DNA of 64,000 bases from an uncultured Candidatus Saccharibacteria bacterium (GCA_964432765.1 CAYSOT010000001.1:66096-130095), one strand, 5' to 3'; numbered from the stretch's first letter, positions 24,573-42,905 are shown. The notes: a model not told the origin generated them from the sequence alone. Translations and numbers: made by a program.

Positions 24573-26060
24573 ATGATAGAGAGGAACGTAAACTACGCTA
24601 TGAAGATTTCTACCGGCACAAGTTTTCCTAAATCACTGCGGGCTCTTGTATTGGTGATACCTGAAAACGGTTCCACGCAGCTTGGCATCTTAAGTAAAGG
24701 CGCTGCGAAGATTGTTTCGTCAGAAATTTCGCGACGGAAACTTAAGGGCGCCCCCGGTGAGGCAGCGGTTATTCGAACTGGTCTAGTGGGTCCTGAAGGT
24801 CACGTTATCGTCATCGGAGGCGGAAAGGATGCTGACTCAGAAACGTGGCGATCCGTTACAGCGGCGGCTATTAAAACTGCCACCGAACACGCTTTGACAA
24901 GCGTGGGGATGGATCTTCCGAAGGCGTCTACTGCTGAATTCACGCGTGCTATTGCTGGCTCTGCCCATCTTGCTTCGTATCGCTATACGAAACACCACAG
25001 CAAGGCGACCCAAACCCGCGAAACGCTTCTCTATCTAAGAACCACCAGTGGCAAGCTTAATGACACAAAACAGGCAATCCAGGCCGGTGTCATCGAAGCA
25101 GAGGCTACCATTCTGGCGCGCGATTTGGTTAATGAACCACCATCGCTGCTTACTCCGCGCAACTTGGCTGCAGAGGCTAAACGGATCGGACGGGCAGGCG
25201 GACTAACTGCAACCGTACTTAGCAAGAAGCAGATGGAGCGCCTTGGTTTTCATGCGACACTCGCTGTTGCTAAAGGCTCGAACGAAGAGCCGTGTTTTAT
25301 CAAGCTAAGTTACTCACCTCGCAGCACACGTAAGCACGTCGTTCTAGTCGGAAAGGGAGTCACCTACGATGCCGGCGGAATTAATATCAAGCCAAGTCGT
25401 GGTGGCAGCCTCGAAGACATGAAAATGGACATGGCCGGAGCAGCCGCCGTGATGGCAACTTTGTCGGCCCTTCCTAAGCTGAAACTCCCGGTTAAAGTAA
25501 CGGCTTACGTCGCTGCGACAGAAAATCTGCTCGGCGGATCTGCATATAAGCCGGGCGACGTCGTGCGGGCATACAACGGCAAGAGTATTGAGATTACAAA
25601 TACCGACGCAGAGGGCAGGCTAACACTTGCCGATGCTCTCTCATACGCAATCGCTAAAGATAAGCCAGATACTATAATCGACTTGGCCACTCTCACCGGG
25701 GCGGCCATAGTTGCGCTTGGTGATAAGATTGCAGCACTTTTTTCAAATAATGATGAGCTTTCCCGCGCGCTCTGGAAGGCAAGCAAACAGAGCGGTGAAC
25801 GTATTTGGAAAATGCCACTCCCACACGATTACAACGAGATGATAAAAGGCCGAATCGCGGATCTTGATAACTCGGGCGCAAGCGGTGCCGGAACCATTAC
25901 GGCAGCCCTCTTTCTGCAAAATTTTGTTGGCAATACACCCTGGGCTCATCTCGACATCGCTGGCCCAGCTTTCTCGAGTAAGGAGTCTGGGTACTTGGCC
26001 CGCGGCGGAACTGGTTTTGGCGTACGTCTTTTGCTCGAGTATCTTGGGTCAATCAAGTAA
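24573..26060 (+). CDS. pepA: Leucyl aminopeptidase (M17 family)
   Basis: The M17 signature NTDAEGRLTLADAL is present, together with metal ligands in VGKGVTYDAGG and DMAGAAAV. Confidence 0.9.
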   Translation: MIERNVNYAMKISTGTSFPKSLRALVLVIPENGSTQLGILSKGAAKIVSSEISRRKLKGAPGEAAVIRTGLVGPEGHVIVIGGGKDADSETWRSVTAAAIKTATEHALTSVGMDLPKASTAEFTRAIAGSAHLASYRYTKHHSKATQTRETLLYLRTTSGKLNDTKQAIQAGVIEAEATILARDLVNEPPSLLTPRNLAAEAKRIGRAGGLTATVLSKKQMERLGFHATLAVAKGSNEEPCFIKLSYSPRSTRKHVVLVGKGVTYDAGGINIKPSRGGSLEDMKMDMAGAAAVMATLSALPKLKLPVKVTAYVAATENLLGGSAYKPGDVVRAYNGKSIEITNTDAEGRLTLADALSYAIAKDKPDTIIDLATLTGAAIVALGDKIAALFSNNDELSRALWKASKQSGERIWKMPLPHDYNEMIKGRIADLDNSGASGAGTITAALFLQNFVGNTPWAHLDIAGPAFSSKESGYLARGGTGFGVRLLLEYLGSIK

Positions 26061-26434
26061 TGCTGTCATCGCACTTCGCAAACGATGTTGAGCGCATCGT
26101 GAAGATGGTCCCGCGGGGCCGCCTGGTTACTTATGGTCAAATAGCAGCTTTACTTGGGATGCCGCGTGCCGCGCGGGCTGTTGGGTGGACCGCCCATTGG
26201 GGAGATCCGGATGTTCCCTGGCAGCGAGTAGTCAACCGGAATGGACGGGTTGCGCCGGGTTGGCCAGGAGGCATGCATGCGCACGCCGCCGCACTTGCCA
26301 AAGAGGGTATCAGTATTAACGAAGACTTCTGTGCGGAATTAGAAAAATACCAATGGATACCGTCGGAAAAGGTAATCCAGGAGCTTGGCCTCGAGCCGCT
26401 AGATAAGAAAAACTTTCCCTACGCTTCCGGGTAG
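26060..26434 (+). CDS. Alkyltransferase-like (ATL) protein: MGMT DNA-binding domain with Trp replacing the active-site Cys
   Basis: RLVTYGQIAALLGMPRAARAVG...VPWQRVVNRNGRV carries PWQRV in place of the PCHRV active site of O6-alkylguanine-DNA alkyltransferases. This is the hallmark of ATL damage-sensor proteins. Confidence 0.75.
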   Translation: MLSSHFANDVERIVKMVPRGRLVTYGQIAALLGMPRAARAVGWTAHWGDPDVPWQRVVNRNGRVAPGWPGGMHAHAAALAKEGISINEDFCAELEKYQWIPSEKVIQELGLEPLDKKNFPYASG

Positions 26435-26649
26435 AGCTGCTTTCCGTTTTCATCGTAAACCGTAATGGCAGCAGTTGGACACGATTTTGCAGCATCGAGA
26501 ATCATTTCAAGATCTTCGAGGCTGGCACCTTCTTTCACATAAGCCTTCCCATCGTCACCAAGATCAAAAACGTCTGGGGCAATAGCAACGCAGCTTGCCG
26601 CACCGATACAGAGATCTTCGTTCACGACCACTTTAGAAATTCTCGTCAT
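26419..26649 (-). CDS. Ferredoxin (single-cluster, Cys-x-x-A-x-x-C...CP type)
   Basis: The 76 aa protein has VVNEDLCIGAASCVAIAPDVF...AAKSCPTAAI, a ferredoxin fold with three or four Cys. Confidence 0.7.
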   Translation of the reverse strand: MTRISKVVVNEDLCIGAASCVAIAPDVFDLGDDGKAYVKEGASLEDLEMILDAAKSCPTAAITVYDENGKQLYPEA

Positions 26650-26879
26650 GCTATTGTCTCGTTTATACGCCCGAGCATCTCGTCTACTTCAACTTCTGTC
26701 ATTCCGTGGATCCTCGCGCCCATCTCGACCGTATCAAACTGATTAGCAAAACAGCCGACACAGTGAAGTCCATACTCGAGCATGACTGCTGCAGCCTGAG
26801 GATACGATTTTGCAATGTCGCCAAGATTGCTGTCACGCGTTACGGTAGTGGCTTTGGACATACCAGTAGAATACGCCAT
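26646..26879 (-). CDS. DUF1858-type small redox protein (hybrid-cluster-protein-associated family)
   Basis: The 77 aa protein has LGDIAKSYPQAAAVMLEYGLHCVGCFANQFDTVEMGARIHGMTEVEVDEML, the typical DUF1858 CxGC motif and length. Confidence 0.55.
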   Translation of the reverse strand: MAYSTGMSKATTVTRDSNLGDIAKSYPQAAAVMLEYGLHCVGCFANQFDTVEMGARIHGMTEVEVDEMLGRINETIA

Positions 26880-26884
26880 GCAGC

Positions 26885-27343
26885 TTATTTGGACGAGTCC
26901 AGAGATTGCTCCTGCTTACGCGGATGCGCCAATCTAGCGGCCGCTTCAATGGTCCAGCAGAGATAGAGCTCCGTCCTGTTCTGTTCAGTTATGGCAGTGG
27001 CAAATGGAGTAAATACTCCCGACGGATCACCTGTACTATCATGGCGTTCAATTACCACCCCGTCTGGACGTATTACGACCTCGCTGACACCAGCGGCATG
27101 GTGCTGGCATGCTGTACGTCTGAACGAGAGGTTTGCGCTATAGCTAACGTATTCTTGGCCTGCGTGCTGATAGCGCCGCACGTCATGTTGGACGGTCAGA
27201 AAAAGCGTATCCTCGACGGGTATTTCCGTCTGGGGCGGTATTTGCTCAGCAAATGTACAAATTGCAGACGTCCATTCATCATCTACACGCAAAATGACGC
27301 CTTCAGGTGCTTTCTCTGCGGGCTGTTTGGCTTCTTTGTCCAT
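26885..27343 (-). CDS. Hypothetical protein (152 aa) in the suf/ferredoxin operon
   Basis: The ORF is compact and joined in an operon with its neighbours. No motif is recognised. Confidence 0.4.
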   Translation of the reverse strand: MDKEAKQPAEKAPEGVILRVDDEWTSAICTFAEQIPPQTEIPVEDTLFLTVQHDVRRYQHAGQEYVSYSANLSFRRTACQHHAAGVSEVVIRPDGVVIERHDSTGDPSGVFTPFATAITEQNRTELYLCWTIEAAARLAHPRKQEQSLDSSK

Positions 27344-27349
27344 AGCTGC

Positions 27350-27730
27350 CTACTCTAGCTTCTTGAGTGCTGCTTGAAAAGCACCTCGGGCGAGCCCAGC
27401 GCACTTTACTCTGGCACCAGTGATATCAATGCCCAGTTCATCGGACAAAGGAATATTTTCATTGCTCAGAGCTTCGGCAACGCTTTTGCCAAGAACGCGC
27501 TCCATGAGGATTGATGCAGAAGCGATTGAAATCGCACATCCTGCTCCGTCAAAGCGAATATCGCTAATGACTCCATTTTCTATCTGGATATCAATCGTTA
27601 AGCTATCCCCGCACACCGGGTTGTGGGCAGTATGCGAAATTGTTGGATTTTTGAGGGTCCCCCGGTTGCGAGGATTTCGGTAATGGTCGAGGATGTGCTC
27701 TCGATACAAATCCACTAGACAACTTTCCAC
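27350..27730 (-). CDS. sufU: Fe-S cluster assembly scaffold/sulfur-transfer protein SufU (NifU N-terminal-like)
   Basis: The N-terminus is HYRNPRNRGTL. The three conserved Cys lie in NPVCGDS, GAGCAIS and RVKCAGL. Confidence 0.85.
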   Translation of the reverse strand: MESCLVDLYREHILDHYRNPRNRGTLKNPTISHTAHNPVCGDSLTIDIQIENGVISDIRFDGAGCAISIASASILMERVLGKSVAEALSNENIPLSDELGIDITGARVKCAGLARGAFQAALKKLE

Positions 27731-28323
27731 GAATCGCCGTGGACGATAACGGCATGCTCATTGCTTAGCCCGATGATGTCTTGTCGTTTTTCCCGTTTCA
27801 ATATCTCACTAGTCTGAGGCTCAAATCGCGGATCGTTCAGATGCGGAACAATATCTACTGGACACCATCCAAGACCCTTCGTGTCGGCCAGTGTCGGTGC
27901 GACAGCGGCTTCGTCTATGGCATCAATATAGGCAATATCCCGACAGGCAATAATTGAACCGGCCGACGAGCCAATGTAGAGATTTCCTTGTTCAACATAT
28001 GCGTTCAACACATCTTCGATGTTACTTTTCTTGATTTGGTCGAGAAGGTAGTAGGTGTTTCCTCCAGCCACAAACAATACATCTGCTTTCGAAAGCGCCT
28101 TGGCGGTATCTTCAGAGTTAGTGTCGGCAAAATCATAGATATCTATCTGGAAACCAAAGGACCGAAGCGCCTGAAACGAGCCGCTCATTTCCACCGGGTC
28201 GCTCTCGAGATTCTTCGCGGTTTTCACATACAGTAGCCGCAGCGATTCCGGACTACGGGGCAGGACTTCATAGAGCTTTTGAAGCGACTGGTCGATTTGA
28301 GAAGCAAGAAAGAGAGTTTTCAT
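27715..28323 (-). CDS. Peptidase S51 family (dipeptidase E / cyanophycinase-like), copy 1
   Basis: VLFVAGGNTYYLLDQ and IGSSAGSIIA fit the S51 Ser nucleophile motif, and a His lies near the C-terminus. Confidence 0.7.
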   Translation of the reverse strand: MKTLFLASQIDQSLQKLYEVLPRSPESLRLLYVKTAKNLESDPVEMSGSFQALRSFGFQIDIYDFADTNSEDTAKALSKADVLFVAGGNTYYLLDQIKKSNIEDVLNAYVEQGNLYIGSSAGSIIACRDIAYIDAIDEAAVAPTLADTKGLGWCPVDIVPHLNDPRFEPQTSEILKREKRQDIIGLSNEHAVIVHGDSWKVV

Positions 28324-28943
28324 CAGAGAATTGTTACTTGTCCATCCTTAACGCAGATGGCTTGCTCATCGCGTATCGGTTGAAGACGGTGGGCAGTATA
28401 TCCGCTTTCAAGAACTTCTTTGGCCTGAGCAGCCCAGAGGTCACTGTTAACATGGGGAACCGGAATAAAATCAAGAAGTCCTATCCCTTTGGTGTCGGTG
28501 ATGTTGGCGAGAGATGGATCATCCATTGGCTCTATCGGACCAATGTCTGGACCGAGCACAATTGCCCCGGCTGACGAACCAACAATTGTGAGGTTTCTCT
28601 TGATTGTGTGCAGATAGGTATCGAATCCGCTTTCCCGAACTGCTTGCAGCAAGTAGTAAGCACTACCGCCGCCAATATGAATTACCTCCGCCTCATCAAG
28701 CATTTTCTTTAGTGATTCTGGTGATTGTTGAACGAGCCAACACAATTCAATCTTGAAATGCTTCTCGTACATGTGACGGTCCTCGTCTTGGTCGTAGGTA
28801 TATCCAAGCGGCGTTGCAGCATCGGGTACCATATGGACCACACCTTTCTTTGCCGCGCTCTTCAGTTCAGGCAAAAATTTGCGCAGACTTAGTGCGGTTT
28901 GAGAGCAGAGATAGTATGTCGTTTTAGCCATGAAAGGTTTCAA
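28323..28943 (-). CDS. Peptidase S51 family, copy 2 (tandem paralog)
   Basis: VIHIGGGSAYYLLQA and VGSSAGAIVL give the same architecture as the adjacent gene. The two genes abut at 28323. Confidence 0.7.
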   Translation of the reverse strand: MKPFMAKTTYYLCSQTALSLRKFLPELKSAAKKGVVHMVPDAATPLGYTYDQDEDRHMYEKHFKIELCWLVQQSPESLKKMLDEAEVIHIGGGSAYYLLQAVRESGFDTYLHTIKRNLTIVGSSAGAIVLGPDIGPIEPMDDPSLANITDTKGIGLLDFIPVPHVNSDLWAAQAKEVLESGYTAHRLQPIRDEQAICVKDGQVTIL

Positions 28944-30129
28944 GAGCAGTCTTTAGTGCTTGATGTGCTTGCTCAATATCTTCCTTTGTATTGTAAACCG
29001 CCAGCGAGATTCGTGCGCTAGCGGGAATTCCAAGACGAGTATGTAGCGGCTCGGCACAGTGATGTCCCGACCTGATTGCAACACCCTGCTGATCAAATAT
29101 CGTCGCTAAATCGTGAGGATGGATACCGTCGACCACAAACGAGACTACTCCGACACGCTCCGCTGAACCAAGAACCGAAACGCGCTTTTCGGTGCTGAGC
29201 ATCTCAAGAAGCTCTCTGGTCAGCATCTGTTCATGGTCGCTAATCGTCTTCAGCCCGATCTTTTCGATAAACTCGAAAGCTGCCTGCATACCAATCGCTT
29301 CTGCCACAGGCATTGTCCCAGCCTCAAATCGATACGGCGGATCGGCATACGTTGCGTGCCCAAGCTCAACTGAACGAATCATCTCTCCTCCGCCATAGAC
29401 TGGCGGGAGTTCGGCTAGTAGTTCAGGTTTTACCCATAAAGCTCCGACACCGAAGGGCCCGTAAGCTTTGTGCCCTGAAAAGGCATACGCGTCGACCCCA
29501 AGATCCCGAACGTCAACGGCGAGTCTGCCGACGGCCTGAGCACCGTCGACAATCATGTGAGTATTAGCATCTTTTGCCATGCGTGAAAGTTTTTTGATTG
29601 GATTTATACATCCAAGCACATTCGAAACATGGCAGCAGGCAAAAACCGATGCGCCTTCGAGTTTCCGCTCAACATCTTCGAGATCTAGCGATCCATCGTC
29701 GGCAATGGAGGCAAAACGTAGTTGTATGCCTTTCTCTTCCGCTAACAGATACCACGGAATGAGGTTCGCGTGATGCTCCATCTCTGTCAGCAAAACTGTG
29801 TCACCTTGTCGCAGGTACTTTTTTGCATATGACAAAACGAATTGATTGAGGCTTTCAGTAGTGCCCCGCGTAAATACAACTTCCTCACTGGATGCGCCTA
29901 TAAAACTCGCGACCTTCCTGCGCGCATTCTCAAATGCATTCGTAGCAGCCTCCGAAAGACTGTGTACACCCCGATGCGGATTCGCGTTTGAGTTGCGATA
30001 AAAATAATCCATTGCATCCAAAACGTGCTGCGGTCGCTGGGTTGTGGCAGCGTTATCAAGGTATGAAAGCCTGGTTGTGCTTGCCTTAGCAAAAATCGGA
30101 AATTGCGCGATGATCTTGTTTTCGTCCAT
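28924..30129 (-). CDS. sufS: Cysteine desulfurase SufS (class V aminotransferase)
   Basis: Pyridoxal-phosphate Lys region: FSGHKAYGPFGVGAL. Catalytic Cys: RSGHHCAEPL. The protein is 401 aa. Confidence 0.9.
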   Translation of the reverse strand: MDENKIIAQFPIFAKASTTRLSYLDNAATTQRPQHVLDAMDYFYRNSNANPHRGVHSLSEAATNAFENARRKVASFIGASSEEVVFTRGTTESLNQFVLSYAKKYLRQGDTVLLTEMEHHANLIPWYLLAEEKGIQLRFASIADDGSLDLEDVERKLEGASVFACCHVSNVLGCINPIKKLSRMAKDANTHMIVDGAQAVGRLAVDVRDLGVDAYAFSGHKAYGPFGVGALWVKPELLAELPPVYGGGEMIRSVELGHATYADPPYRFEAGTMPVAEAIGMQAAFEFIEKIGLKTISDHEQMLTRELLEMLSTEKRVSVLGSAERVGVVSFVVDGIHPHDLATIFDQQGVAIRSGHHCAEPLHTRLGIPASARISLAVYNTKEDIEQAHQALKTALETFHG

Positions 30130-30145
30130 AGTGCCAGTCTACCGA

Positions 30146-31381
30146 CTAACCCTTCTGCTTAGCGAGCTGGCTGCCAGATAATCGTTCGGTTATTTCTGAG
30201 AGAAATGATTCCCGCACACTTTTACTTGGAATGTTTTGAATCAGATCGGTAAAGAAGCCTTCGACAATCAGGCTCTTTGCGGCTTCTTCCGGCAAACCCC
30301 TGCTCATGAGGTAAAAGAGCGCCTGTTCATCTATTTGCCCCACAGTAGCCCCATGTCCCGCCGTCACATCATCGGCATCAATCTCGAGACCAGGAATTAA
30401 GTCGGCATGGGCGGTGTCTGACAAAAGCATGGCATGACCATTTTGATCTGCACTCGTTCCATGTGCACCTGGCTGGATCTTGATCATTCCCCGATAGACT
30501 GCGCGCGCAGTTTCGTCGACTACTCCGCGTGCGTACGTTTCGGATGTAGCGTGACCCGAAACATGGTTTGCCTCAAGCGTGAAATCAAAGTGCTGACTAC
30601 TGCTTCCAAAGAACGTAGAGCGGACGTTCGACTGTGCGCCTTCGCCAATAAGCTTTGATTCAACATGAATCTGGGATTTGCCAGATCCAAACGTTCCAAT
30701 CATCCAATCAAGTGATGCGTCACGTGCGATGGCTGCCTGGTAGACCGCCAAATTTATGACTGATTCTGGCCAAGCTTGTTTTGCGGTATAGGAGACTCGT
30801 GACTCGTCGTGTGCATAGACTTCCACGCCATGCAGAGCAATAGAGTCTTCACCCATATCGGAAGCAGTAGTTGTTGAATCATAGATATCAGCTACTGCAC
30901 CCTCTCCCACAATAAAAAGACTTCGCCACACATTAAGTGCGCCGGTTTTGGCGCTAAATCGTGTCTCTACTCTGAGTTTTGTCCGTGGTGGTACCACGAC
31001 GACAATCCCGTCTCGAAAAAAAGCACCTGAAAGAGCCGAGAAAAGATGGTCTTCGGCAGGTAGGGCATCACCGAGCATTGAGGCAGCAACGTGCTCTGGC
31101 CAATCATGAATGGCCTTGGACAGCGGTATGGCGATTGGCTTCAGACCGGTGCCGCAATCATCTGCTTCAAACGCAATCTCGGGTGTATCACCAGCGAGCG
31201 GCAAAGAGCTAAGTAAATCAGCAAGTCCGTATCGTTCCCAGCTGAAATACTTCTTGTCGGATGGAATAGCTAGCTTAGGGGCAATGTTTCGTGCCAAACG
31301 CCGTTTAGTTGCAATCGATTTCGGCTCTGCGGGAACGTACTTTGGCAGCCGTAGGTTGGGCTGTGTGCTTGTCTTATCCAA
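30146..31381 (-). CDS. sufD: Fe-S cluster assembly protein SufD
   Basis: It has the SufB/D family C-terminus (ADLIPGLEIDADDVTAGHGATVGQIDEQALFYLMSRGL) but lacks the sufB-specific N-terminus. Its position after sufB also supports the call. Confidence 0.8.
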   Translation of the reverse strand: MDKTSTQPNLRLPKYVPAEPKSIATKRRLARNIAPKLAIPSDKKYFSWERYGLADLLSSLPLAGDTPEIAFEADDCGTGLKPIAIPLSKAIHDWPEHVAASMLGDALPAEDHLFSALSGAFFRDGIVVVVPPRTKLRVETRFSAKTGALNVWRSLFIVGEGAVADIYDSTTTASDMGEDSIALHGVEVYAHDESRVSYTAKQAWPESVINLAVYQAAIARDASLDWMIGTFGSGKSQIHVESKLIGEGAQSNVRSTFFGSSSQHFDFTLEANHVSGHATSETYARGVVDETARAVYRGMIKIQPGAHGTSADQNGHAMLLSDTAHADLIPGLEIDADDVTAGHGATVGQIDEQALFYLMSRGLPEEAAKSLIVEGFFTDLIQNIPSKSVRESFLSEITERLSGSQLAKQKG

Positions 31382-32783
31382 CGCTTCCCTCCATCTCGAG
31401 TTGGATTAATCGATTTAGCTCTACGGCATACTCAAGCGGTAGTTCCTTGACGACTGGTTCAAGAAATCCTGAAACAATCATCGAGATTGCTTCTTCTTCG
31501 GTCAGGCCACGACTCATCAGGTAGAAAAGTTGCTCCTGGCCAATTCTCCCCACAGTTGCTTCGTGAGCAACGGTTACTTTGTCTTCAGATATTTCGATAT
31601 GCGGCAACGTGTCGGACACACTCCGCTCGTCCATAATCAGCGCATCACATTGAATATTTGCCGTGGCTCGCTCTGCTCCTTTTACAATCTTCAATAGCCC
31701 CCGATAGGCACCGCGTCCGCCATCTTTTGAAATCGACTTGGCAACAACTCGTGATTTCGTATCGGGAGCACCATGAATGACTTTGGCTCCGGTATCCTTG
31801 TCGACCTTTCCGACGGCCAAGGCAATATTGAGATGCTCGCAAGACGCCCCTCGTCCTACTAGCCACGAGGCCGGGTACAGCATAGTTGTTCCACTACCGA
31901 GACTTCCTCCGACCCACTCATGGTGCGCATCCTGCTGGATTATGGCTCGCTTAGTGTTGAGGTTATAGACATTCTTTGACCAGTTCTGAACCGTTGTGTA
32001 GCGTGACCGTGCACCCTGCCCAACAAAGATTTCAACAACCGCGGAGTGGAGTGAAGCGCTCGAATAAAGAGGGGCTGTGCATCCTTCGATGTAATGAACT
32101 TCGGCTCCCTCTTCAACAATAATTAGGGTGTGCTCAAACTGACCTTGGCCAGATGCGTTCATACGGAAGTATGTCTGCAATGGCATTTCCACTTTCACCC
32201 CTGCCGGTACATACAAGAACGAACCGCCCGACCAAACTGCGCCGTGCAATGCTGAAAACTTATTATCGTGTCGCGGCACGCATTTGGTCATGAAGTACTG
32301 GCGCACGAGCTCTTCGTGTTCCTTTAGAGCCGTATCCATGTCGCAGAAAATAACACCTTGTTTTTCCCATGGTCGTTGAAGCGATTTATAGACGGTTTCA
32401 GAATCATACATCGCAACAACACCAGCGAGCATTTTTTGCTCAGCTTCCGGAATCTTAAGCTTGTTAAAAGTTTCCTTCATTTCTGCAGGCAAATCGTCCC
32501 ATGATGGTTTGATCTCGTCAGTTGGGCGAATGTAGTAGGTGAGCGCATCGAAATCGATACCTGATAGATCGGGGCCCCAGGTCGGTACTGGTTTTGATTC
32601 AAAGATTTCGAAGGATTTAAGCCGGAACTGGCGCATCCATTCGGGCTCGCCCTTTTGGTATGAGATGTCTTCGACAACTCCGCGTGTGAGTCCGGGTTTT
32701 GATCGATAAACAGACCTATCGGGATCTTGATGACGGAACCTATCGAGACCGGCTGTAACCCCCCGAACAACCGAGTCACTCAT
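31374..32783 (-). CDS. sufB: Fe-S cluster assembly protein SufB
   Basis: The 469 aa protein has GGSFLYVPAGV and ISEDKVTVAHEATVGRIGQEQLFYLMSRGLTEEEA. Confidence 0.9.
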   Translation of the reverse strand: MSDSVVRGVTAGLDRFRHQDPDRSVYRSKPGLTRGVVEDISYQKGEPEWMRQFRLKSFEIFESKPVPTWGPDLSGIDFDALTYYIRPTDEIKPSWDDLPAEMKETFNKLKIPEAEQKMLAGVVAMYDSETVYKSLQRPWEKQGVIFCDMDTALKEHEELVRQYFMTKCVPRHDNKFSALHGAVWSGGSFLYVPAGVKVEMPLQTYFRMNASGQGQFEHTLIIVEEGAEVHYIEGCTAPLYSSASLHSAVVEIFVGQGARSRYTTVQNWSKNVYNLNTKRAIIQQDAHHEWVGGSLGSGTTMLYPASWLVGRGASCEHLNIALAVGKVDKDTGAKVIHGAPDTKSRVVAKSISKDGGRGAYRGLLKIVKGAERATANIQCDALIMDERSVSDTLPHIEISEDKVTVAHEATVGRIGQEQLFYLMSRGLTEEEAISMIVSGFLEPVVKELPLEYAVELNRLIQLEMEGSVG

Positions 32784-33570
32784 CGAGGGGTTCCTGGTCC
32801 TTTCGGCGAATCAAGCGGATCGAGTTCTGAGTTGGGTCTTCTTCAGAATGGTCTTCATCAATCAGGTTGAGCAGACCTTCCGGAAAATCGACCCCGGCAC
32901 CGATGTGTTTGAGAATACCAATTTCAGTTTCGATATCGGGAATTCCAAGCCAGTCTGCATCCTGATACTCGAGCCGAAGTTGGGGTTCTCGAAGCTCTCG
33001 GGGCAAAAGGTCTTCCTGATCTGGCTGGTCCGGGTGCACCACTTCAATTGACGGAGCATTTGGCACAGCACCAATAAACTCATGGATGATTGCCGCAGCC
33101 GCCCCGGGATTTTGGCAGGCTTCTCTGGTCAACCAAATACGCCAGTCTGCGGCTGTGTCTGGCTCGTCTTGCCAGGCTTCATCAATCGGATCTTCAACCT
33201 CAACTGACGATACTGCTTCCATTGCCTCTTGGAGAGCATCGCCTCCGTCAACATCGGGCGTATCCATTACCATCCGCGTAACGCTCACCGTATAGGGAGT
33301 ATCGTCATGCGATGCGAGAAAACCAAATTCTCCCCGATCAATATGTCTTAGAAATGAGTCTACGGCTGCATCGCCTCCAAGCTCTGGGTGAAGCTCGCCA
33401 AAATCAACAACCCCATCTCCGTATAGTGGTTCATCGGAGACTATTCGCTCAGCTAAAGATACGTGGACATCATCAAGCTCATCAGGATTAAATGAGACTT
33501 CCTCTTCCTCCGAAGCTGGGAAAAATAGCAGCTCTGCGCGAAAATAATTCTCTTCGCGTTCGGGCATCAC
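32776..33570 (-). CDS. Highly acidic hypothetical protein (264 aa) embedded between sufC and sufB
   Basis: It is rich in Asp/Glu ([10 protein letters not shown]...EEEEVSFNPDELDD...) and has no recognisable domain. An 8-nt overlap with sufB and a 4-nt overlap with the upstream gene imply co-translation. Confidence 0.45.
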   Translation of the reverse strand: MMPEREENYFRAELLFFPASEEEEVSFNPDELDDVHVSLAERIVSDEPLYGDGVVDFGELHPELGGDAAVDSFLRHIDRGEFGFLASHDDTPYTVSVTRMVMDTPDVDGGDALQEAMEAVSSVEVEDPIDEAWQDEPDTAADWRIWLTREACQNPGAAAAIIHEFIGAVPNAPSIEVVHPDQPDQEDLLPRELREPQLRLEYQDADWLGIPDIETEIGILKHIGAGVDFPEGLLNLIDEDHSEEDPTQNSIRLIRRKDQEPLDE

Positions 33571-34025
33571 GAATCACATGGGTTATGCGGATAGGGTGTA
33601 CCGTGCCAGCCTGGCCGGCGAGGATGGTAGGGATATTTCCCGGGATCAAGCGATTCGCGTCGACGCTCCTCTTCGGGTGAAATGATTCGCTCCTCATTCT
33701 CCTGCAGAGTCTGAAACACGGCCTCATCTAAAATGGCTTGCCGGTTGAGATAGTACTCTTCTGCGTAGGCTCCATCTAGACCGGTTGGTGGGAGTGTATC
33801 TAGCGAATCAGCCGAAGGGAAATCATCCAGCGAACACCCTTCGCTACCCCGCGTTCTGGTGCTCGGTAAGTGCGTTGCCATAATTAGCCCGAGCATAGTC
33901 TGGTAATCCTCGGCAGTGCGCAGTGCTGTCGGTTTGGCCAGCTCAAATTCAAACGGCGCTTCTTTTAGTTGTTCTATTATCCGCTCAATATCGCCTGGTT
34001 GGTTTCGCTCTACTTCTTTAGCCAT
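33567..34025 (-). CDS. Hypothetical protein (152 aa) embedded between sufC and sufB
   Basis: It overlaps sufC by 16 nt and has a Pro/Tyr/His-rich C-terminus ([23 protein letters not shown]). Nothing in it is recognisable. Confidence 0.45.
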
Positions 34026-34798
34026 GCGTATCCTTTTTGTTCAAGTTCGGCGACTAGTTCTGGTGGTCCAGTCTCGATAATCTTGCCTTCAGCCATGACA
34101 TGAACAATATCAGGCTTAACGTAATTAAGAATCCGCTGATAGTGCGTTATCAACAGAATGGACATCTCTGGACTGTCTTTTTTCAAAGCGTTGATTCCTT
34201 TAGCCACAATCTGCAGCGCATCAATGTCGAGTCCCGAATCAGTTTCGTCGAGTATCGCGAGCTTGGGTTGCAATAGAGCCATCTGCAGCATTTCAGCCCG
34301 TTTTTTTTCACCGCCGGAGAAGCCTTCGTTTAGGTAGCGATCGCTAAAGTCTTCGGACATTTCGAGCAGACTCATTTTCTCTTTTAAAACCCTGCGGAAT
34401 TCTAAGACGGTTAGTGGCGTCTCGCCACGTGCTTCACGAACCGCATTCACAGCTTGGCGAAGAAAATGCGCAACAGACACACCGGCAATTTCTTGCGGAT
34501 ACTGAAATGCCAAAAATACGCCTGCTTTTGCACGCTCATCTGGCGAAAGCTTAAATAGTGAATTGCCGTTAAAGACAGCATCACCTTGTGTCACTTCGTA
34601 CTTTGGGTGACCCATCAAGACTGAGGACAGCGTCGACTTGCCTGAACCATTTGGCCCCATCAAGGCATGCACTTTGCCGGCAACAACGTCGAGATCGACC
34701 CCCTTGAGTATTTCAGTCTCTTCGACCCGCGCGTGTAGGTTCTTTATGCGCAGTATACTCATGTGCACATCATACCTTGGTATTGACAAATCTCTCAA
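34010..34798 (-). CDS. sufC: Fe-S cluster assembly ATPase SufC
   Basis: Walker A: [12 protein letters not shown] signature: FSGGEKKR. Walker B: [12 protein letters not shown]. The length of 262 aa is typical of SufC. Confidence 0.95.
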
Positions 34799-34820
34799 CC
34801 GTGAGCAAAATTGACAAGCT

Positions 34821-35234
34821 ATGGCAATAGAAGGAACGCCAGATTACCCCATCGACGAAGGCCGTCCGGCCCGCAGGCCTGAGGAAATGCGCACTGATCC
34901 GCATGCCGAACGTAACCCAGATGCCGCGCGCGGGATCGCTGTACTAACCCAGCTTAGCGAAGTAGCGAAGGCAAGCCGTGAAGGCGCCCTACACGAAGAA
35001 GAGCGTACAGAAGTGACCCGCAGACTACGGCATTCGCTAGCGGCGCTTGGGATCGTACTGGAGCAAGACTCAGCTCTGATGCGCGAGGTTGTTTTCTCGC
35101 ACTATGGCTTGCACGCAGATGAGCCCCCACGAACATTGGTTGAGATAGCAGAAGCAACAGGGGAAGATCTCGCCTATGTCGGCACGCTTGTCGACCACGG
35201 GGCGACGCTTGTTGGCGCTCATTTCCACGAATAA
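34821..35234 (+). CDS. Hypothetical small protein with possible C-terminal HTH
   Basis: [22 protein letters not shown] resembles a sigma70 region-4-like HTH. The rest is a charged N-terminus. Tentative. Confidence 0.35.
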
Positions 35235-35248
35235 ATACCTTGCAAATA

Positions 35249-35278
35249 AAAACCGCATCTCGTATGAGATGCGGTTTT
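35249..35278. terminator. Bidirectional Rho-independent terminator between convergent genes
   Basis: AAAAACCGCATCTC-gtat-GAGATGCGGTTTTCT is a 10-bp perfect stem flanked by an A-run and a T-run. Confidence 0.8.
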
Positions 35279-35289
35279 CTAGTTCTGAC

Positions 35290-35859
35290 TTAGTACGTGT
35301 ACGTGCTTGTCGTATCGATGGTTGATGCTGCAGCAAATACTCCGAGCGCGATTAGCAAGAAGAAGAATAGCCACATGGCGGCCCCGATGACCGTAACGGC
35401 GATTTCACCGCCGCTGAACTTAGCTTCAGTTGCCTGACCTGCAGACTTCGTGTCCCAGTACTTGTTTAGCTCGCTAATAACAAGCCCCATAATAATGTAG
35501 TTGATGGGGCTTATTAGCATTAGTACCGCATAGAGCACTGCTTGGAAACCTGACGCACCGGCAGAGCGCTGTAGCTTATCGATGTCACGATAGAGCCAGT
35601 AGAGAACAAAGATATTGAGAATTGGTACGAACAAACCTAGTGTCTGCAAACCTGTATTGTCGTTGCTTCCAAGCTCGTTGGTAACTTTCTCTCGTGTCAC
35701 GTAAAACCAATAAATCATATAAAGGCCAAATGAAACGAGCGTGAGCAGCAATACGCGCACAACGCTTCGCTTTACGGCCCAATTGCCACTGGCATTTTGA
35801 ACACTCGGCGCTGGTTGTTCAGCTGGAGTTTCTTGAGTTGGTTGTACTTCGTCTAGCAT
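35290..35859 (-). CDS. DUF4234-like small membrane protein, copy 1
   Basis: The motifs WAVKRSVVRVLLLTLVSFGLYMIYWFY...NDNTGLQTLGLFVPILNIFVLYWLYRDI match those in the adjacent gene, which makes the two a tandem paralog pair. Confidence 0.55.
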   Translation of the reverse strand: MLDEVQPTQETPAEQPAPSVQNASGNWAVKRSVVRVLLLTLVSFGLYMIYWFYVTREKVTNELGSNDNTGLQTLGLFVPILNIFVLYWLYRDIDKLQRSAGASGFQAVLYAVLMLISPINYIIMGLVISELNKYWDTKSAGQATEAKFSGGEIAVTVIGAAMWLFFFLLIALGVFAAASTIDTTSTYTY

Positions 35860-35877
35860 GTTTCTCCTTAGTTGTTA

Positions 35878-36612
35878 TTAGTAGCTAAAGTCGACAGAAT
35901 TATTAGTCTTTACTGTATCGGTTGAAGAAGTGTCACTCAGCGCTCCGGTAATTCCGTTGAGCACCCACAGAACGACTCCGATGATGATCACGATAATCTC
36001 GCCCTGTGAGAATTTGGCATCAGACGCCTGATTATTACTTCTAACATCCCAGTAGTTATTAAGTTTGCTAATCGCCAGCCCAGCAAAGACGTAATAGAGG
36101 ATACCCCCAACGATCATGAGCAAGATTGCCGGAATGATAAACAATGCAGCTCCTCCGATCGCAAGGCCCGCATTACCTGAAACTGCTGCACCTGCACCAA
36201 CAATGAGGCCGAGTATAAACAGAGCAATCCCACCAAAGAGAAGGCCCAGTGGGAGAAATACGTACATTCCAGCGGAAAATCCTTCAAGATTGTTTTCTCG
36301 GCGCACGCGGTTAATATCTCGGAAAATCCAGTAGATAATAAAGAGATTCAAAATCGGAACGATGAGCCCGATTGTCTGAAGACCCGCATTGTCATCGGTT
36401 TTCAGCTCCCGAGAGAGAATCCGCCGGTTTTGATAAAACCAATAAAACCAGTAGAGTCCACTCGTAACCCACGAAAGTCCAAAGACTCGGATTACGCTGT
36501 ATTTGATTTTCCATTCTTCTGGACGATTAACATCCTTCGCAAGTGGAGACGCCGCAGGCGCTGTGGGCGCTTCTACGGGAGCGGGTGTTGGCTGTTCATT
36601 TTCGTCGGCCAT
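35878..36612 (-). CDS. DUF4234-like membrane protein, copy 2 (extra Gly/Ala-rich TM region)
   Basis: KIKYSVIRVFGLSWVTSGLYWFYWFY...DDNAGLQTIGLIVPILNLFIIYWIFRDI parallels the motifs of copy 1. Confidence 0.55.
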   Translation of the reverse strand: MADENEQPTPAPVEAPTAPAASPLAKDVNRPEEWKIKYSVIRVFGLSWVTSGLYWFYWFYQNRRILSRELKTDDNAGLQTIGLIVPILNLFIIYWIFRDINRVRRENNLEGFSAGMYVFLPLGLLFGGIALFILGLIVGAGAAVSGNAGLAIGGAALFIIPAILLMIVGGILYYVFAGLAISKLNNYWDVRSNNQASDAKFSQGEIIVIIIGVVLWVLNGITGALSDTSSTDTVKTNNSVDFSY

Positions 36613-36688
36613 AATTTCCTTTTTATGTTAGTTGAAGGCTTCTACCCACAGACTAACAAGATGCGTGGCGAGCAGCAATACAAAACGT

Positions 36689-37282
36689 CTACGTATGCTT
36701 GGCAGCGTTGAACGCCTCTTCAACTGCAGCCCAGTCCATGTTCCGCAAAAAGGCCTCGATGTACTTGGGTCGTGCGGTAGAGAAATCAGCAATATACGCA
36801 TGCTCGTAAACGTCGAGCGCGACTACTGGGTGAGCGTTCCAAATCGGGAAGGTGTCTTGGCTATCGCCAATACAATTGTAGAGAGCTTGAAAATCATCGT
36901 CCCAAGCAGTCCACGCCCAACCTCGCCCTGCCATACCGGCCGCTGTTAAATCGGCAATGTAGTTGTCCCAGGATCCAAAATCTATCTCAACTTGGTACTT
37001 AAACGCTCCCTCAACCGGTGTTCCGTCACCGCCGAGGTGCCCGAAGTAAATCTCATGATTCTTAATTCCCCCGACCGCAAAAGTCGCGCCTAGCGAAGCC
37101 GCCCGGTAATCAGAAAAGGCCTGGTTTGCCTTGCTCTTATCTGCTTCTGCAAGCCTACCCATGGCTTCGTTGAATTTCGCGACATAGCCTTCGTAGAGTT
37201 TGTAGTGAGCCTGAACCGACTGGGCCGAAATCCCCTGCAGGGAATTCAGACGGTCATTGTACGGCTTGGCTTGATATTCCAT
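36689..37282 (-). CDS. sodA: Fe/Mn superoxide dismutase
   Basis: N-terminal HHxKHH-type motif: AQSVQAHYKLYEGYV. C-terminal DVYEHAYIADF with DxWEHAYY-like metal ligands. Confidence 0.9.
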   Translation of the reverse strand: MEYQAKPYNDRLNSLQGISAQSVQAHYKLYEGYVAKFNEAMGRLAEADKSKANQAFSDYRAASLGATFAVGGIKNHEIYFGHLGGDGTPVEGAFKYQVEIDFGSWDNYIADLTAAGMAGRGWAWTAWDDDFQALYNCIGDSQDTFPIWNAHPVVALDVYEHAYIADFSTARPKYIEAFLRNMDWAAVEEAFNAAKHT

Positions 37283-40141: not shown

Positions 40142-41008
40142 CTACATTAAGTCTTTGAGCAGAGGGGCGAGCTTGGGCGCACTTTTTCTAGCCGCCAAAG
40201 GCGCCTTAAGATGTTCAATCTCCTCGGTATAAACCGGTCGTTCTTCGGTGTAGATAATTCCGATTGGCAGCTCGTCGCCCCATTTATGGGCCTGTTGGTG
40301 TGCCGCTTCGTGCGAGGCCGGATTATAGTCGGCTAGATCATCAAGTTTATAGAGACGTTCTCGGTAGTAGTCATACGTTTGAACGTGATTAAACGTCACA
40401 CATGGCTGAAATACATCTACAAGGCTGTAGCCTTGATGCTGCATCGCTGACTTTATCAACTCCTTGAGATGATTGTGTTCTCCGGCAAACCCTCGCGAAA
40501 TAAATGAAGCACCCGCCTCAAGCGCCAACCCCAAAGGGTTCACTTGGCGTTCTATCACTCCATCAGGTGTCGATTTTGTCTTAAATCCCTGCTCTGAGGT
40601 CGGGGACGTTTGTCCCGTCGTGAGTCCGTAAATCAAGTTGTCGTGAACGATATGTGTAATGTTGTGGTTTCCACGCATTGCATGAATCCAGTGGCTAAGC
40701 CCTTCGCCGTAGTTGTCTCCATCTCCGTTAACCACCAGAACCGGCAGGTCGTGGTTTGCGAGCTTGGCTCCGATTGCCGTTGGCAGTGCCCGACCATGGA
40801 GGGCATGAAACCCATAGGCATTCAAAAAGGAGCACATGTTGCCACTGCAGCCGATTCCATACACTACGATCAGCTCATGAGGTGCGATCCCAAGCTCCGC
40901 GAGCGCTTGTTTGATAGCACCCCAAATAGACCAGTCACCACAACCGGGACACCACGTAGGAAATACTTCCGTCTCAAAATCAGTGGCTACTAGTCTTTTC
41001 TTAGCCAT
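40142..41008 (-). CDS. korB: 2-oxoacid:ferredoxin oxidoreductase, beta (TPP-binding) subunit
   Basis: FETEVFPTWCPGCGDWSIWGA...GIGCSGNM is the KorB/PorB thiamine-diphosphate binding fold. The TPP motif is GDGD-x-Y. Confidence 0.85.
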   Translation of the reverse strand: MAKKRLVATDFETEVFPTWCPGCGDWSIWGAIKQALAELGIAPHELIVVYGIGCSGNMCSFLNAYGFHALHGRALPTAIGAKLANHDLPVLVVNGDGDNYGEGLSHWIHAMRGNHNITHIVHDNLIYGLTTGQTSPTSEQGFKTKSTPDGVIERQVNPLGLALEAGASFISRGFAGEHNHLKELIKSAMQHQGYSLVDVFQPCVTFNHVQTYDYYRERLYKLDDLADYNPASHEAAHQQAHKWGDELPIGIIYTEERPVYTEEIEHLKAPLAARKSAPKLAPLLKDLM

Positions 41009-42905
41009 GCATGACTCCTTCTATTGCTTCGACGACTTCTTCTGGGTAGATTGGCCGACCATCGTATTTAAGGAGTCGGTTAGTAAGATTAATACCGGTT
41101 TGCTCCCGAATGAGACCGCCGAGTTGACCCGTCATGTTAGTTTCTACAAGCAAGGTTGATGCCGAATCCGTAAGCAGTGTTTCTACAATCTTCTGAGGAA
41201 AGGGCCAAATCGTCTTGAGCTGCAAGAACCGCGTCTGGATACCGCGAGCCGTAAGGTGTTTTTGTGCTTCGAGAATCGCTCCCTTCGTCGAGCCCCAAGA
41301 AACAATCGTTACCTCTGCATTTTTGGGGCCGTAAAGCTGGGGTGCGGGGACACTTTTTTGCAATTCTGGGAGCTTGGCAAATCGTTTTTGCATCATCGCT
41401 ATCCGCACCTTTGCATCTTCGGAGCTATAGCCAAATTCGTCATGCTCATCAGAATTAGCCATGAAGATACCGCCTTCTTGCCCAGGAAAACTACGTGGGC
41501 TTACGCCATCTTCCATTAGTTCGTATCGCTTGAATCGACGTTTCATTTTTTTAAGCGCCGCGTCTGTGACAACTTTTCCGCGGTTAACCTTCGGTGCACT
41601 AGCGAAAGGCAGTGTCGTCCAATGAGATTCGTTAAGATACTTGTCGGTCAAAACAAAGACTGGGAGCTGATACATGTCGGCCAGGTTGAATGCTTCCGCA
41701 GTCATCAGAAATGCTTCGTCGACGTCACCTGGAGCAAGTATGACTCGGGGAAACTCGCCTTGCGCCGAATGCAGCACGAACCGCAAATCTCCCTGATCCG
41801 TCCAAGTTGGCAAACCCGTTGCTGGCCCGGGTCGCATCGCTTCCATAATTACCAGCGGGGTTTCGGTAATTGCCGCAAGTCCAAGCGCTTCGACCATCAA
41901 GGCAAAGCCGCCACCCGCTGACCCTGTCATAGCTCGCGCTCCAGCAAATGAAGCACCAATTGCCTGGTTTATAGCCGCTATTTCATCTTCGGCATGTTTC
42001 ACGACCATACCGAGCGCCTCTTGGTTCGCTGCGAGATAGTGCATCACCGGTGTCGCAGGAGTCATTGGGTAAGCCGAGTAAAAGGTACACCCTGCTGCTG
42101 CTGCTCCAAGGGCAAGTGCCTCTGCACCAGTGACGGCAATTTGTGCCGATTTCTTCTTAAGTGGTGCGAGGGAGTAGCTAAACTGCTCGGGATATGTGTC
42201 TAGGACATATCGATATCCCGCCGCAGCAGCGGCTTTATTTGCATCAATAGCGGCTTGTTTCTTCTTTGCACCAAAAACATCTTCGATCACTGCTTCGAAA
42301 AGCGGTAAGGGATATCCGCATAGTGCTAAAAACGCTCCAAGCGCGACAGTGTTGCGCATGAGCTTCTGTCCCGCCGCCTCAAGGGCTAGCGACTCTAGAG
42401 GAACACCATAGTGTCGCAGTGAAGGACGCGATAAATCGCCGTGATCGATTGTGATCTCGTCGCTGTCATAAAGAATTGCCCCGTCATCGGTCAGTTCATG
42501 CTCATGTAGAAACACCGTCGCTTTGTTGAGCGCCACTAGTACGTTGATTTTTCCAAGCGCAGCATGGACTTGCTCTTCATCGACACGTAGCAAGAACGTG
42601 TTGTGCCCGCCGCGAATTAATGAGGGGTATTCCGTGTAGTCAAAGACACTTAGACCGCCACGGGAAAGCGTCTTGGTTAGCAAAAGCCCTGAAACAGCGA
42701 TACCGAACCCGGCTTCGCCGCCAATTTTCACGGTAAGTCGATTTGGTCGCGGGCGACTCTGCTCATCAGTTGCAGCAACCGACGGGGTGTCGTGACGAGG
42801 ATCACGAGGATACGTATAGGGATGAGGGGCTCCGGCTCGCCGACTTGCTGGAGCAAGTGCTGTTTCACGCTGTGCGCGTGCCCCCTTTGCACTGCGCTCT
42901 TTCAT
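41001..42905 (-). CDS. korA: 2-oxoacid:ferredoxin oxidoreductase, fused gamma-alpha subunit
   Basis: The N-terminal gamma-like domain is KIGGEAGFGIAVSGLLL, followed by an alpha domain (AAAGCTFYSAYPMTPATP). It overlaps korB by 8 nt. Confidence 0.85.
   Translation of the reverse strand: MKERSAKGARAQRETALAPASRRAGAPHPYTYPRDPRHDTPSVAATDEQSRPRPNRLTVKIGGEAGFGIAVSGLLLTKTLSRGGLSVFDYTEYPSLIRGGHNTFLLRVDEEQVHAALGKINVLVALNKATVFLHEHELTDDGAILYDSDEITIDHGDLSRPSLRHYGVPLESLALEAAGQKLMRNTVALGAFLALCGYPLPLFEAVIEDVFGAKKKQAAIDANKAAAAAGYRYVLDTYPEQFSYSLAPLKKKSAQIAVTGAEALALGAAAAGCTFYSAYPMTPATPVMHYLAANQEALGMVVKHAEDEIAAINQAIGASFAGARAMTGSAGGGFALMVEALGLAAITETPLVIMEAMRPGPATGLPTWTDQGDLRFVLHSAQGEFPRVILAPGDVDEAFLMTAEAFNLADMYQLPVFVLTDKYLNESHWTTLPFASAPKVNRGKVVTDAALKKMKRRFKRYELMEDGVSPRSFPGQEGGIFMANSDEHDEFGYSSEDAKVRIAMMQKRFAKLPELQKSVPAPQLYGPKNAEVTIVSWGSTKGAILEAQKHLTARGIQTRFLQLKTIWPFPQKIVETLLTDSASTLLVETNMTGQLGGLIREQTGINLTNRLLKYDGRPIYPEEVVEAIEGVMHG

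Follow-up and report, generated by a model that had tools for sequence, protein, structure and literature searches.

Introduction

In the SUF pathway of iron-sulfur (Fe-S) cluster assembly, the cysteine desulfurase SufS draws sulfur from cysteine in persulfide form, SufU relays it, and the SufBC2D complex builds the cluster with the aid of the SufC ATPase. In Firmicutes of the Bacillus subtilis type these proteins are encoded by the sufCDSUB operon, with a type II SufS, SufU rather than SufE, and neither SufA nor SufE in the operon. The actinobacterial sufRBDCSU-T operon (Mycobacterium tuberculosis Rv1460-Rv1466) is extended by an accessory gene at its 3' end, and the isc operon ends in fdx, which encodes a small [2Fe-2S] ferredoxin donating electrons to IscS/IscU. 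Here we analyse a suf locus in a 64,000-nucleotide stretch of DNA (the window) from an uncultured Candidatus Saccharibacteria bacterium (GCA_964432765.1, CAYSOT010000001.1:66096-130095), where twelve co-oriented genes probably form one operon made up of a seven-gene SufU-type core and five lineage-specific passengers.

The window operon encodes the same five core proteins as B. subtilis sufCDSUB, also uses a type II SufS with SufU, and likewise contains neither sufA nor sufE. It differs in having the order C-B-D-S-U, in carrying seven extra genes embedded in or appended to the core, and in being probably leaderless. The C-B-D-S-U order is also present in loci that we fetched from Anaerolineales, Fimbriimonadia and candidate phyla radiation (CPR)-type genomes. 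As in the actinobacterial operon, accessory genes occupy the 3' end; however, SufR and SufT (DUF59) are missing, and the accessories are instead a stand-alone DUF1858 protein and a ferredoxin. The latter resembles isc fdx in its position and could by analogy be an electron donor, but it is a three-Cys Fer4_13 protein closest to the Thermotoga maritima and Pyrococcus furiosus ferredoxins.

Organisation of the suf locus

Twelve consecutive minus-strand open reading frames (ORFs) are listed between 26419 and 34798. The initial annotation had described them as tightly coupled and co-oriented, in the order sufC, two unknown genes, sufB, sufD, sufS, two S51 peptidase genes, sufU, a further unknown gene, a DUF1858 gene and a ferredoxin gene, and the ORF list, Pfam, NCBIfam and the junction geometry all agree with this description. 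Along the array Pfam finds ABC_tran, two SUFBD_core, Aminotran_5, two Peptidase_S51, NifU_N, DUF1858 and Fer4_13 domains. All named genes exceed the Pfam cut-offs, and SufC, SufB, SufD, SufS, SufU and the DUF1858 protein also exceed those of NCBIfam. Pfam gives nothing for the three ORFs listed at 152, 264 and 152 aa, which are referred to in operon order as unk152a, unk264 and unk152b. Four starts were corrected by reference to the orthologues called in related contigs and to the junctions themselves: sufC to ATG 34762 (instead of TTG 34798), unk264 to ATG 33567, the first S51 gene (S51a) to ATG 28931 and sufU to GTG 27715. The operon with corrected starts spans 26419-34762 on the minus strand. 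Eight of its eleven junctions are overlaps of 1-16 nt and the remaining three are gaps of 5-16 nt (from sufC to ferredoxin: -16, -1, -8, -8, +16, -8, -1, -1, +6, +5 and -4 nt); a promoter plus a terminator is too large for any of them. The gene geometry thus points, with reasonable confidence, to a single tightly packed twelve-gene operon for Fe-S cluster assembly.

The five suf genes, all like the remainder of the array on the minus strand, are readily assigned. The Fe-S assembly ATPase is encoded by sufC (34010-34762; 250 aa, as in the orthologue calls; TIGR01978 360.7 bits against a cut-off of 212.8), and the scaffold subunits by sufB (31374-32783; 469 aa; TIGR01980 690.9 against 346.4 bits) and sufD (30146-31381; 411 aa from a TTG start; TIGR01981 237.3 against 222 bits). 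The type II cysteine desulfurase SufS (28924-30129; 401 aa; TIGR01979 497.7 against 475.1 bits) shows both the pyridoxal phosphate-lysine context SGHK and the active-site motif RSGHHCAEP. The sulfur-transfer protein SufU (27350-27715) has 121 aa when read from GTG 27715, a length shared by the gene calls in relatives, with the ORF listing reaching 27730. It scores 110.7 bits against a TIGR01994 cut-off of 92.5, its best-matching part lying at profile positions 3-85 of 137. The protein is a Zn-type NifU_N sulfur acceptor and not a SufE, three Cys (NPVCGD, GAGCAIS and KCAG) can be seen in its sequence, and no SufE was found within the operon. The two conserved accessories at the 3' end are a 77-aa DUF1858 CxxC redox-disulfide protein (26646-26879) and a 76-aa single-cluster three-Cys ferredoxin (26419-26649; Fer4_13 E 2.3e-14).

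Five genes, which we term passengers, are found between these seven. The sufC/sufB junction holds the acidic orphan unk152a (33567-34025; 152 aa, pI 4.7) and the very acidic orphan unk264 (32776-33567; 263 aa, pI 4.05, 67 Asp plus Glu residues); that between sufS and sufU holds two divergent S51-family genes, S51a (28323-28931; 202 aa; Peptidase_S51 E 4.8e-24) and S51b (27715-28323; 202 aa; E 9.3e-33); and the orphan unk152b (26885-27343; 152 aa) separates sufU from the DUF1858 gene.

An outgroup operon with the same core and different inserts

A metagenome scan with a SufB alignment yielded the nearest outgroup, two contigs (L086 and L087) from Antarctic cryptoendolithic rock metagenomes (PMC7171226). 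The flanks of L087 are those of the window: cobalamin adenosyltransferase, superoxide dismutase (SOD) and DUF4234 genes upstream, and a convergent alkyltransferase-like (ATL) gene, an M17 aminopeptidase gene and a 198-aa homologue of the window's 213-aa ORF downstream. Between them the order is sufC, an 84-aa acidic ORF, sufB, CutA1, NUDIX, PNPOx-like, sufD, CYTH-like, sufS, sufU, DUF1858, Peptidase_C26, ferredoxin and an 88-aa membrane ORF. Only sufC, sufB, sufD, sufS, sufU, DUF1858 and ferredoxin are common to the two operons (SufB 85%, DUF1858 77%, ferredoxin 67%, SufD 54%, SufS 52% and SufU 40% identical), and these seven shared genes are therefore presumed to represent the ancestral unit. 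DUF1858 and the ferredoxin are thus better conserved towards L087 than SufD, SufS or SufU.

Neither an S51 gene nor a homologue of unk152a, unk264 or unk152b is present in the L087 operon. Because all five are missing from an otherwise syntenic operon, the S51 pair and the orphans appear to be lineage-specific, at the level of the genus. Conversely, the 64-kb window and the other loci fetched are devoid of homologues of the L087 inserts. The 84-aa acidic ORF at the L087 sufC/sufB junction was considered as a counterpart of unk152a or unk264 and is similar to neither. At the slot held by unk152b in the window, L087 sufU overlaps the DUF1858 gene by 26 nt. From the gene content of the two operons, each lineage has filled different junctions with different, tightly coupled genes.

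Conservation within the clade

The whole arrangement together with its flanks is present in L082-L085, a set of ENA contigs traced through a 57%-identical relative of unk264, and in L108-L111 and L113 from other samples, which carry the same S51-S51-sufU-orphan-DUF1858-ferredoxin block. The Logan contigs L081 and L112 were left aside, being identical to the window or, as with L112, derived from its own sample. In the clade, the operon is flanked upstream by SOD, two DUF4234 genes and a divergent 137-aa ORF, and downstream by the convergent ATL gene and the M17 aminopeptidase. An Fe/Mn SOD gene and one or two DUF4234 membrane-protein genes lie directly upstream, in the same orientation as suf, in all relatives (window 35290-37282, minus strand; L082 2938-4964; L087 7314-8659).

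A comparison of the window with L082 reveals saturated synonymous sites, the proportion of synonymous differences (pS) being 0.73-0.87 per gene except for unk152a (0.49). Nonsynonymous differences (pN) range from 0.03 to 0.35 and are well below pS for every ORF, and indels relative to the relatives occur only in unk264 and unk152b, all in frame. This combination indicates that all twelve are selected protein-coding genes. Amino acid identity to L082 is highest for S51a (96%), SufB (95%), ferredoxin (92%) and unk152a (91%), followed by S51b (87%), SufC (86%), DUF1858 (84%) and SufS (77%), and lowest for SufD (73%), SufU (64%), unk264 (58%) and unk152b (47%). To the initial annotation, absence of the arrangement from any relative would have marked a recent and accidental juxtaposition. 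At least two more relatives at species level carry it even though synonymous sites are saturated, and it is therefore no accident of one genome.

Transcription signals

A promoter scan placed a divergent promoter region of 58 nt (34763-34820, minus strand) between sufC and the opposite-strand 137-aa ORF. It contains a -35 hexamer TTGAGA (34798-34793) and, at 18-nt spacing, a -10 hexamer TATGAT (34774-34769), with six bases intervening between the latter and the sufC ATG. The region is identical at 55 of its 58 nt between the window and L082, despite the saturated synonymous sites elsewhere, and L087 keeps the geometry from -10 to start codon (TACGAT, 6 nt, sufC ATG), there with a same-strand DUF4234 gene directly upstream. 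Since the -10 hexamer ends 6 nt before the ATG and both the region and the geometry are conserved, the sufC mRNA is probably leaderless, with an operon-specific start. Two copies of TTGTCAAT, 28 nt apart, are also present in the conserved region and may constitute an operator site.

Internal promoters or terminators, raised in the initial annotation as a way in which the array could fall into separate units, were looked for by a consensus scan. Inside the array there are 6 consensus promoter matches against 10.5 in shuffled sequence, and 8 terminator matches against 10.7. At the 3' end of the operon a terminator-like hairpin with a T-run (26417-26436, minus strand) is weakly indicated; as a conserved terminator it was rejected, the stem and T-run not being kept in L082 or L108. 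Rfam gave no match in 26000-35300 at E<=1.

The divergent 137-aa ORF (34821-35234, plus strand), which shares the 58-nt promoter region with sufC, is 66% identical to its L082 counterpart and absent from L087, where no divergent gene lies between DUF4234 and sufC. Visual inspection suggests a likeness of its C-terminal part (YGLHxDExP...EIAExTGED...) to a helix-turn-helix of the sigma-70 region-4 type. Pfam and PDB searches lend no support to a regulator; going by its position and this resemblance, the ORF could still be a regulator of the operon.

The DUF1858 protein and the ferredoxin

The DUF1858 protein exceeds the cut-offs of both PF08984 (47 against 32.2 bits) and TIGR03980 (63.1 against 44.95 bits), and its HCVGC motif aligns to the CxxC of 2K5E and 2K53. 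It is the same small helical CxxC domain as that of TIGR03980, the 'hybrid cluster protein-associated redox disulfide domain', and as the N-terminal domain of ScdA/RIC. The genomic setting is a different one: neither the operon nor its flanks encode a hybrid cluster protein, no di-iron RIC domain is nearby, and DUF1858 is embedded among suf genes instead. One paper treats DUF1858 as equivalent to the N-terminal domain of ScdA, an Fe-S repair protein, so that the family already has a loose tie to Fe-S repair (PMC8638851). Fusions of SufT with DUF1858 are on record (PMC4982691), and a CxxU selenoprotein form exists (PMC13188914), which implies redox activity at the motif.

We searched about 100 suf loci, fetched by SufB similarity, for neighbouring DUF1858 and ferredoxin genes. 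In four further lineages (L068, L070, L021 and L055; the L068 record is titled Saccharibacteria and L021 is from Woesearchaeota) a DUF1858 gene lies on the same strand, 0-366 nt from a suf gene. By a rough estimate, which was not computed, chance would place one in about 0.1 of 80 such 20-kb loci. The archaeal loci L021 and L055 encode fusion proteins, in which DUF1858 is followed by an Fe-S_biosyn domain (the A-type carrier domain of SufA/IscA) that has the CGCG motif. The motif GLHCxxC...GAxxHG is invariant across the suf-linked homologues, and the stand-alone copies (window, L087, L068 and L070) share GLHC(V/I)(G/S)CFANxFDT.

Small Fer4_13 ferredoxins, 45-55% identical to that of the window, adjoin suf genes in L033, L038 and L063, and L071 has a related one 6 kb from its suf genes. 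The window ferredoxin carries three Cys in the motif CIGAASC...CP, in place of the four-ligand CxxCxxC...CP; in an alignment to the T. maritima ferredoxin, CIGCGVC there corresponds to CIGAASC here. Cys or Asp occupies the second ligand position in the ferredoxins of T. maritima and P. furiosus, and the three-Cys pattern CxxA/SxxC...CP is invariant in all seven suf-linked homologues. By ferredoxin motif rules, a three-Cys pattern lacking the second Cys is of the [3Fe-4S] type. With three Cys and Ala/Ser in place of the second, the operon ferredoxin is thus predicted to hold a [3Fe-4S]-type site. The protein matches Fer4-type Pfam families only, and no adrenodoxin-like [2Fe-2S] fold was detected; an electron-donor role like that of ISC Fdx would therefore be one of analogy, not homology.

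Two neighbouring features touch on the ferredoxin. A 124-aa ATL ORF with the DNA_binding_1 domain only (26060-26434, plus strand) converges on the ferredoxin gene with a 16-nt 3' overlap, which is kept in L082, L108, L109 and L110. About 14 kb from the operon lie 2-oxoacid:ferredoxin (acceptor) oxidoreductase genes (40142-42905, minus strand), with the alpha subunit at 651 bits to TIGR03710 and an adjacent 288-aa ORF (40142-41008) that we assume to be the partner subunit. For the operon ferredoxin, this oxidoreductase is clearly another candidate partner or client.

The S51 pair

S51a and S51b are only about 29% identical to one another. Both match PF03575 Peptidase_S51 over their full length (85.6 and 114.1 bits, respectively, against a cut-off of 23.9), and in both the GxSAG nucleophile elbow (GSSAG) and a downstream VPH histidine align with solved S51 structures. 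The third, acidic residue of the Ser-His-acid triad is not assignable from the alignments. The pair shares the full-length match, the GxSAG motif and the PH histidine with the known members of the family (PepE aspartyl dipeptidase, cyanophycinase and MccG), yet falls far below both equivalog cut-offs, with 31.3 (S51a) and 66.2 bits (S51b) against 156 for PepE (NF003642), and 21.4 and 31.6 bits against 126.6 for cyanophycinase. The closest solved structures are Deinococcus radiodurans DR_1070 for S51a and Listeria Lmo0363 (3L4E) for S51b, both uncharacterised and without assigned function. S51a has one homologue cluster at E<=1e-10 and none outside the clade. A published S51 phylogeny includes one clade without detectable peptidase activity and another hydrolysing aspartyl-nucleotides (PMC9239234), and the label 'S51 peptidase', itself given by profile matches, therefore leaves the substrate unfixed.

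Across the approximately 100 other suf loci examined, S51 genes and orphan homologues are both lacking, consistent with the earlier statement that canonical suf operons contain neither peptidases nor these unknowns; to our knowledge, suf loci with an S51 gene have not been described elsewhere. A peptidase-like hydrolase is nevertheless encoded in both versions of the operon, at different slots: the S51 pair in the window (27715-28931) and a C26 protein in L087 (16203-16964). S51 and C26 presumably share the class-I glutamine-amidotransferase-like fold of MEROPS clan PC, and the occurrence of a clan-PC hydrolase in both operons could reflect coincidence or functional analogy.

The orphan genes

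Among 5.8 billion proteins, unk264 falls into two 90%-identity clusters (its own and a 57%-identical one) and unk152b into three only, and among 1.84 billion representatives the sole cluster of unk152a is its own. Two weak extra matches of unk152a were dismissed as homologues, both being repeat proteins. The cluster searches of all three orphans thus turned up clade members only. None had a Pfam match at E<=5 or a PDB match in sequence or profile searches, and unk152b, the only orphan scanned against NCBIfam, had no match there. AlphaFold2 models reach a pLDDT of 36 for unk264 and 47 for unk152b, the latter with no fold match. Constraint is nonetheless evident against L082 (pN 0.047 and pS 0.49 for unk152a; 0.25 and 0.80 for unk264), and unk152b, 47-50% identical among clade members, retains 72 invariant positions including HHAAG and LYLCW. 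Recent horizontal transfer was considered for the passengers and ruled out: their GC, GC3 and codon usage are ordinary, and they are therefore not recent arrivals.

Within unk152a, a stretch of about 75 nt (33737-33815, minus strand) hardly differs in nucleotide sequence between the window and L082/L085. It shows one third-position change in 19 codons, compared with 5-9 per 19 codons elsewhere in the gene, and its local identity of 0.88-0.91 is the highest in the 13-kb locus, above that of sufB. No alternative-frame ORF is open through it in all sequences, and neither an RNA fold signal (z 0.11) nor an Rfam match was found for it.

SufB length in other suf loci

Genome contigs scanned with the window SufB gave matches of at best 63% identity, spread across many phyla. 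In six CPR-type loci of the fetched set (L038, L063, L065, L068, L070 and L071) the SufB match extends over about 1.9 kb (approximately 10001-11900) compared with about 1.37 kb. This implies that sufB contains an insert of about 0.5 kb there, which could be an intein or an additional domain. Three of these records are titled Gammaproteobacteria; their SufB shares the insertion of about 0.5 kb with Peribacteria/Peregrinibacteria and Saccharibacteria loci.

Discussion

The reading that we favour, and consider likely, is a polycistronic SufU-type SUF operon consisting of a seven-gene core and five lineage-specific passengers. The conserved core would comprise sufC, sufB, sufD, sufS, sufU, the DUF1858 CxxC protein and the three-Cys ferredoxin. 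The last two may act as a redox or delivery add-on to the SUF machinery, for example as a source of electrons for reducing persulfides or for cluster coupling, or as helpers of a carrier. The passengers (two orphans between sufC and sufB, two S51 genes between sufS and sufU, and one orphan between sufU and DUF1858) would have been inserted at gene junctions, would now be translationally coupled, and would use the transcription of the operon. As judged from their conservation, they are real, selected genes, with no support for a role in Fe-S assembly beyond co-transcription. The initial annotation had taken the tight coupling to suggest a functional link of the embedded genes to Fe-S assembly or delivery. 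For DUF1858 and the ferredoxin this gains support, as both are kept in L087 and are suf-linked elsewhere, and as DUF1858 also occurs fused to a SufA/IscA carrier domain; for the S51 pair and the orphans it is not supported, as they are absent from L087.

Electron and iron donors for SufBC2D are, according to a review, unknown (PMC8593673), which leaves room for a more specific proposal: that SUF has a branch of its own for electron delivery or redox work, made up of the DUF1858 protein and the ferredoxin, which would be the missing donor for persulfide reduction or cluster coupling. Such a branch would be maintained in this lineage, would recur in suf operons of the CPR/DPANN type and would in some cases be fused to a SufA carrier. 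We regard it as a tentative possibility.

Several points weigh against the favoured reading. The single transcript is deduced from geometry only, and the roles of DUF1858 and the ferredoxin are predicted from gene context and fusions. The outgroup comparison amounts to one lineage, and differential loss from a passenger-rich ancestor is compatible with it. In their conservation S51a (96%) and unk152a (91%) match SufB (95%), which hints at an important, possibly SUF-related function, and the clan-PC peptidase-like gene in the operons of both lineages may be no coincidence.

These last observations bear on the alternative that all twelve genes encode one extended SUF machine, in which the acidic unk152a and unk264 would bind to SufBCD as iron suppliers, the S51 pair would cleave small peptides to provide SufS with cysteine or some other substrate, and unk152b would assist SufU. 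The genes are translationally coupled exactly at the interfaces where such partners would act, S51a and unk152a are under strong purifying selection, the extreme acidity of unk264 is reminiscent of proposed iron donors, and the iron donor for SUF is unknown (PMC8593673). The L087 operon, too, has a C26 peptidase-like hydrolase and an acidic 84-aa ORF between sufC and sufB. Yet the latter is unlike either acidic orphan, all five genes are absent from the syntenic L087 operon, and the approximately 100 other suf loci contain neither an S51 gene nor an orphan homologue. The orphans themselves have no detectable homologues or confident fold; of the S51 proteins, the closest solved relatives Lmo0363 and DR_1070 have no assigned function, and the S51 tree holds a clade, to which these two may or may not belong, without detectable peptidase activity (PMC9239234). 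We consider such a twelve-protein machine, including the substrate-release and SufU-assisting roles taken jointly with it, improbable. A narrower proposal, which would extend the redox-branch reading, is that the strongly constrained S51a and unk152a and the acidic unk264 provide SUF with iron or cysteine as partners specific to the genus; it appears, if anything, a little harder to credit.

Recruitment for co-regulation would explain the passengers differently, as parts of a stress-defence super-operon: suf would be induced by oxidative stress or metal limitation in this lineage, and unrelated damage-control or house-cleaning genes could have been gathered under its promoter. The neighbourhood fits, with SOD and DUF4234 directly upstream in the same orientation and the ATL DNA-repair gene convergent downstream in all relatives. 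So do the L087 inserts, since CutA1, NUDIX, PNPOx-like, CYTH-like and C26 are typical house-cleaning or stress families, as well as the strongly conserved promoter region and the divergent small ORF that could be a regulator. However, the orphans have no assignable function, 'stress-related' is a loose label that fits many gene sets, and this explanation departs from the core-and-passenger operon solely in claiming that the co-regulation is adaptive; we hold that added claim to be unlikely. Least probable, and largely refuted, is an accidental juxtaposition of separate transcription units in which some of the unknown ORFs are not genes. A few promoter-like hexamer pairs do occur inside the array (32291, 27801 and 26836, minus strand), but such matches are fewer than in shuffled sequence, eight of eleven junctions overlap with the other three at most 16 nt, and gene order persists across saturated synonymous divergence with pN well below pS and indels in frame.

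The core is thus an ordinary SufU-type SUF operon, and the DUF1858/ferredoxin pair is the part worth following. The tight translational coupling of genes inside an essential operon need not mean shared function, because two related lineages have filled the junctions of the same operon with entirely different genes. The DUF1858 protein and the ferredoxin, which stay attached to suf across deep divergence, are a testable candidate for a redox branch of the SUF system.

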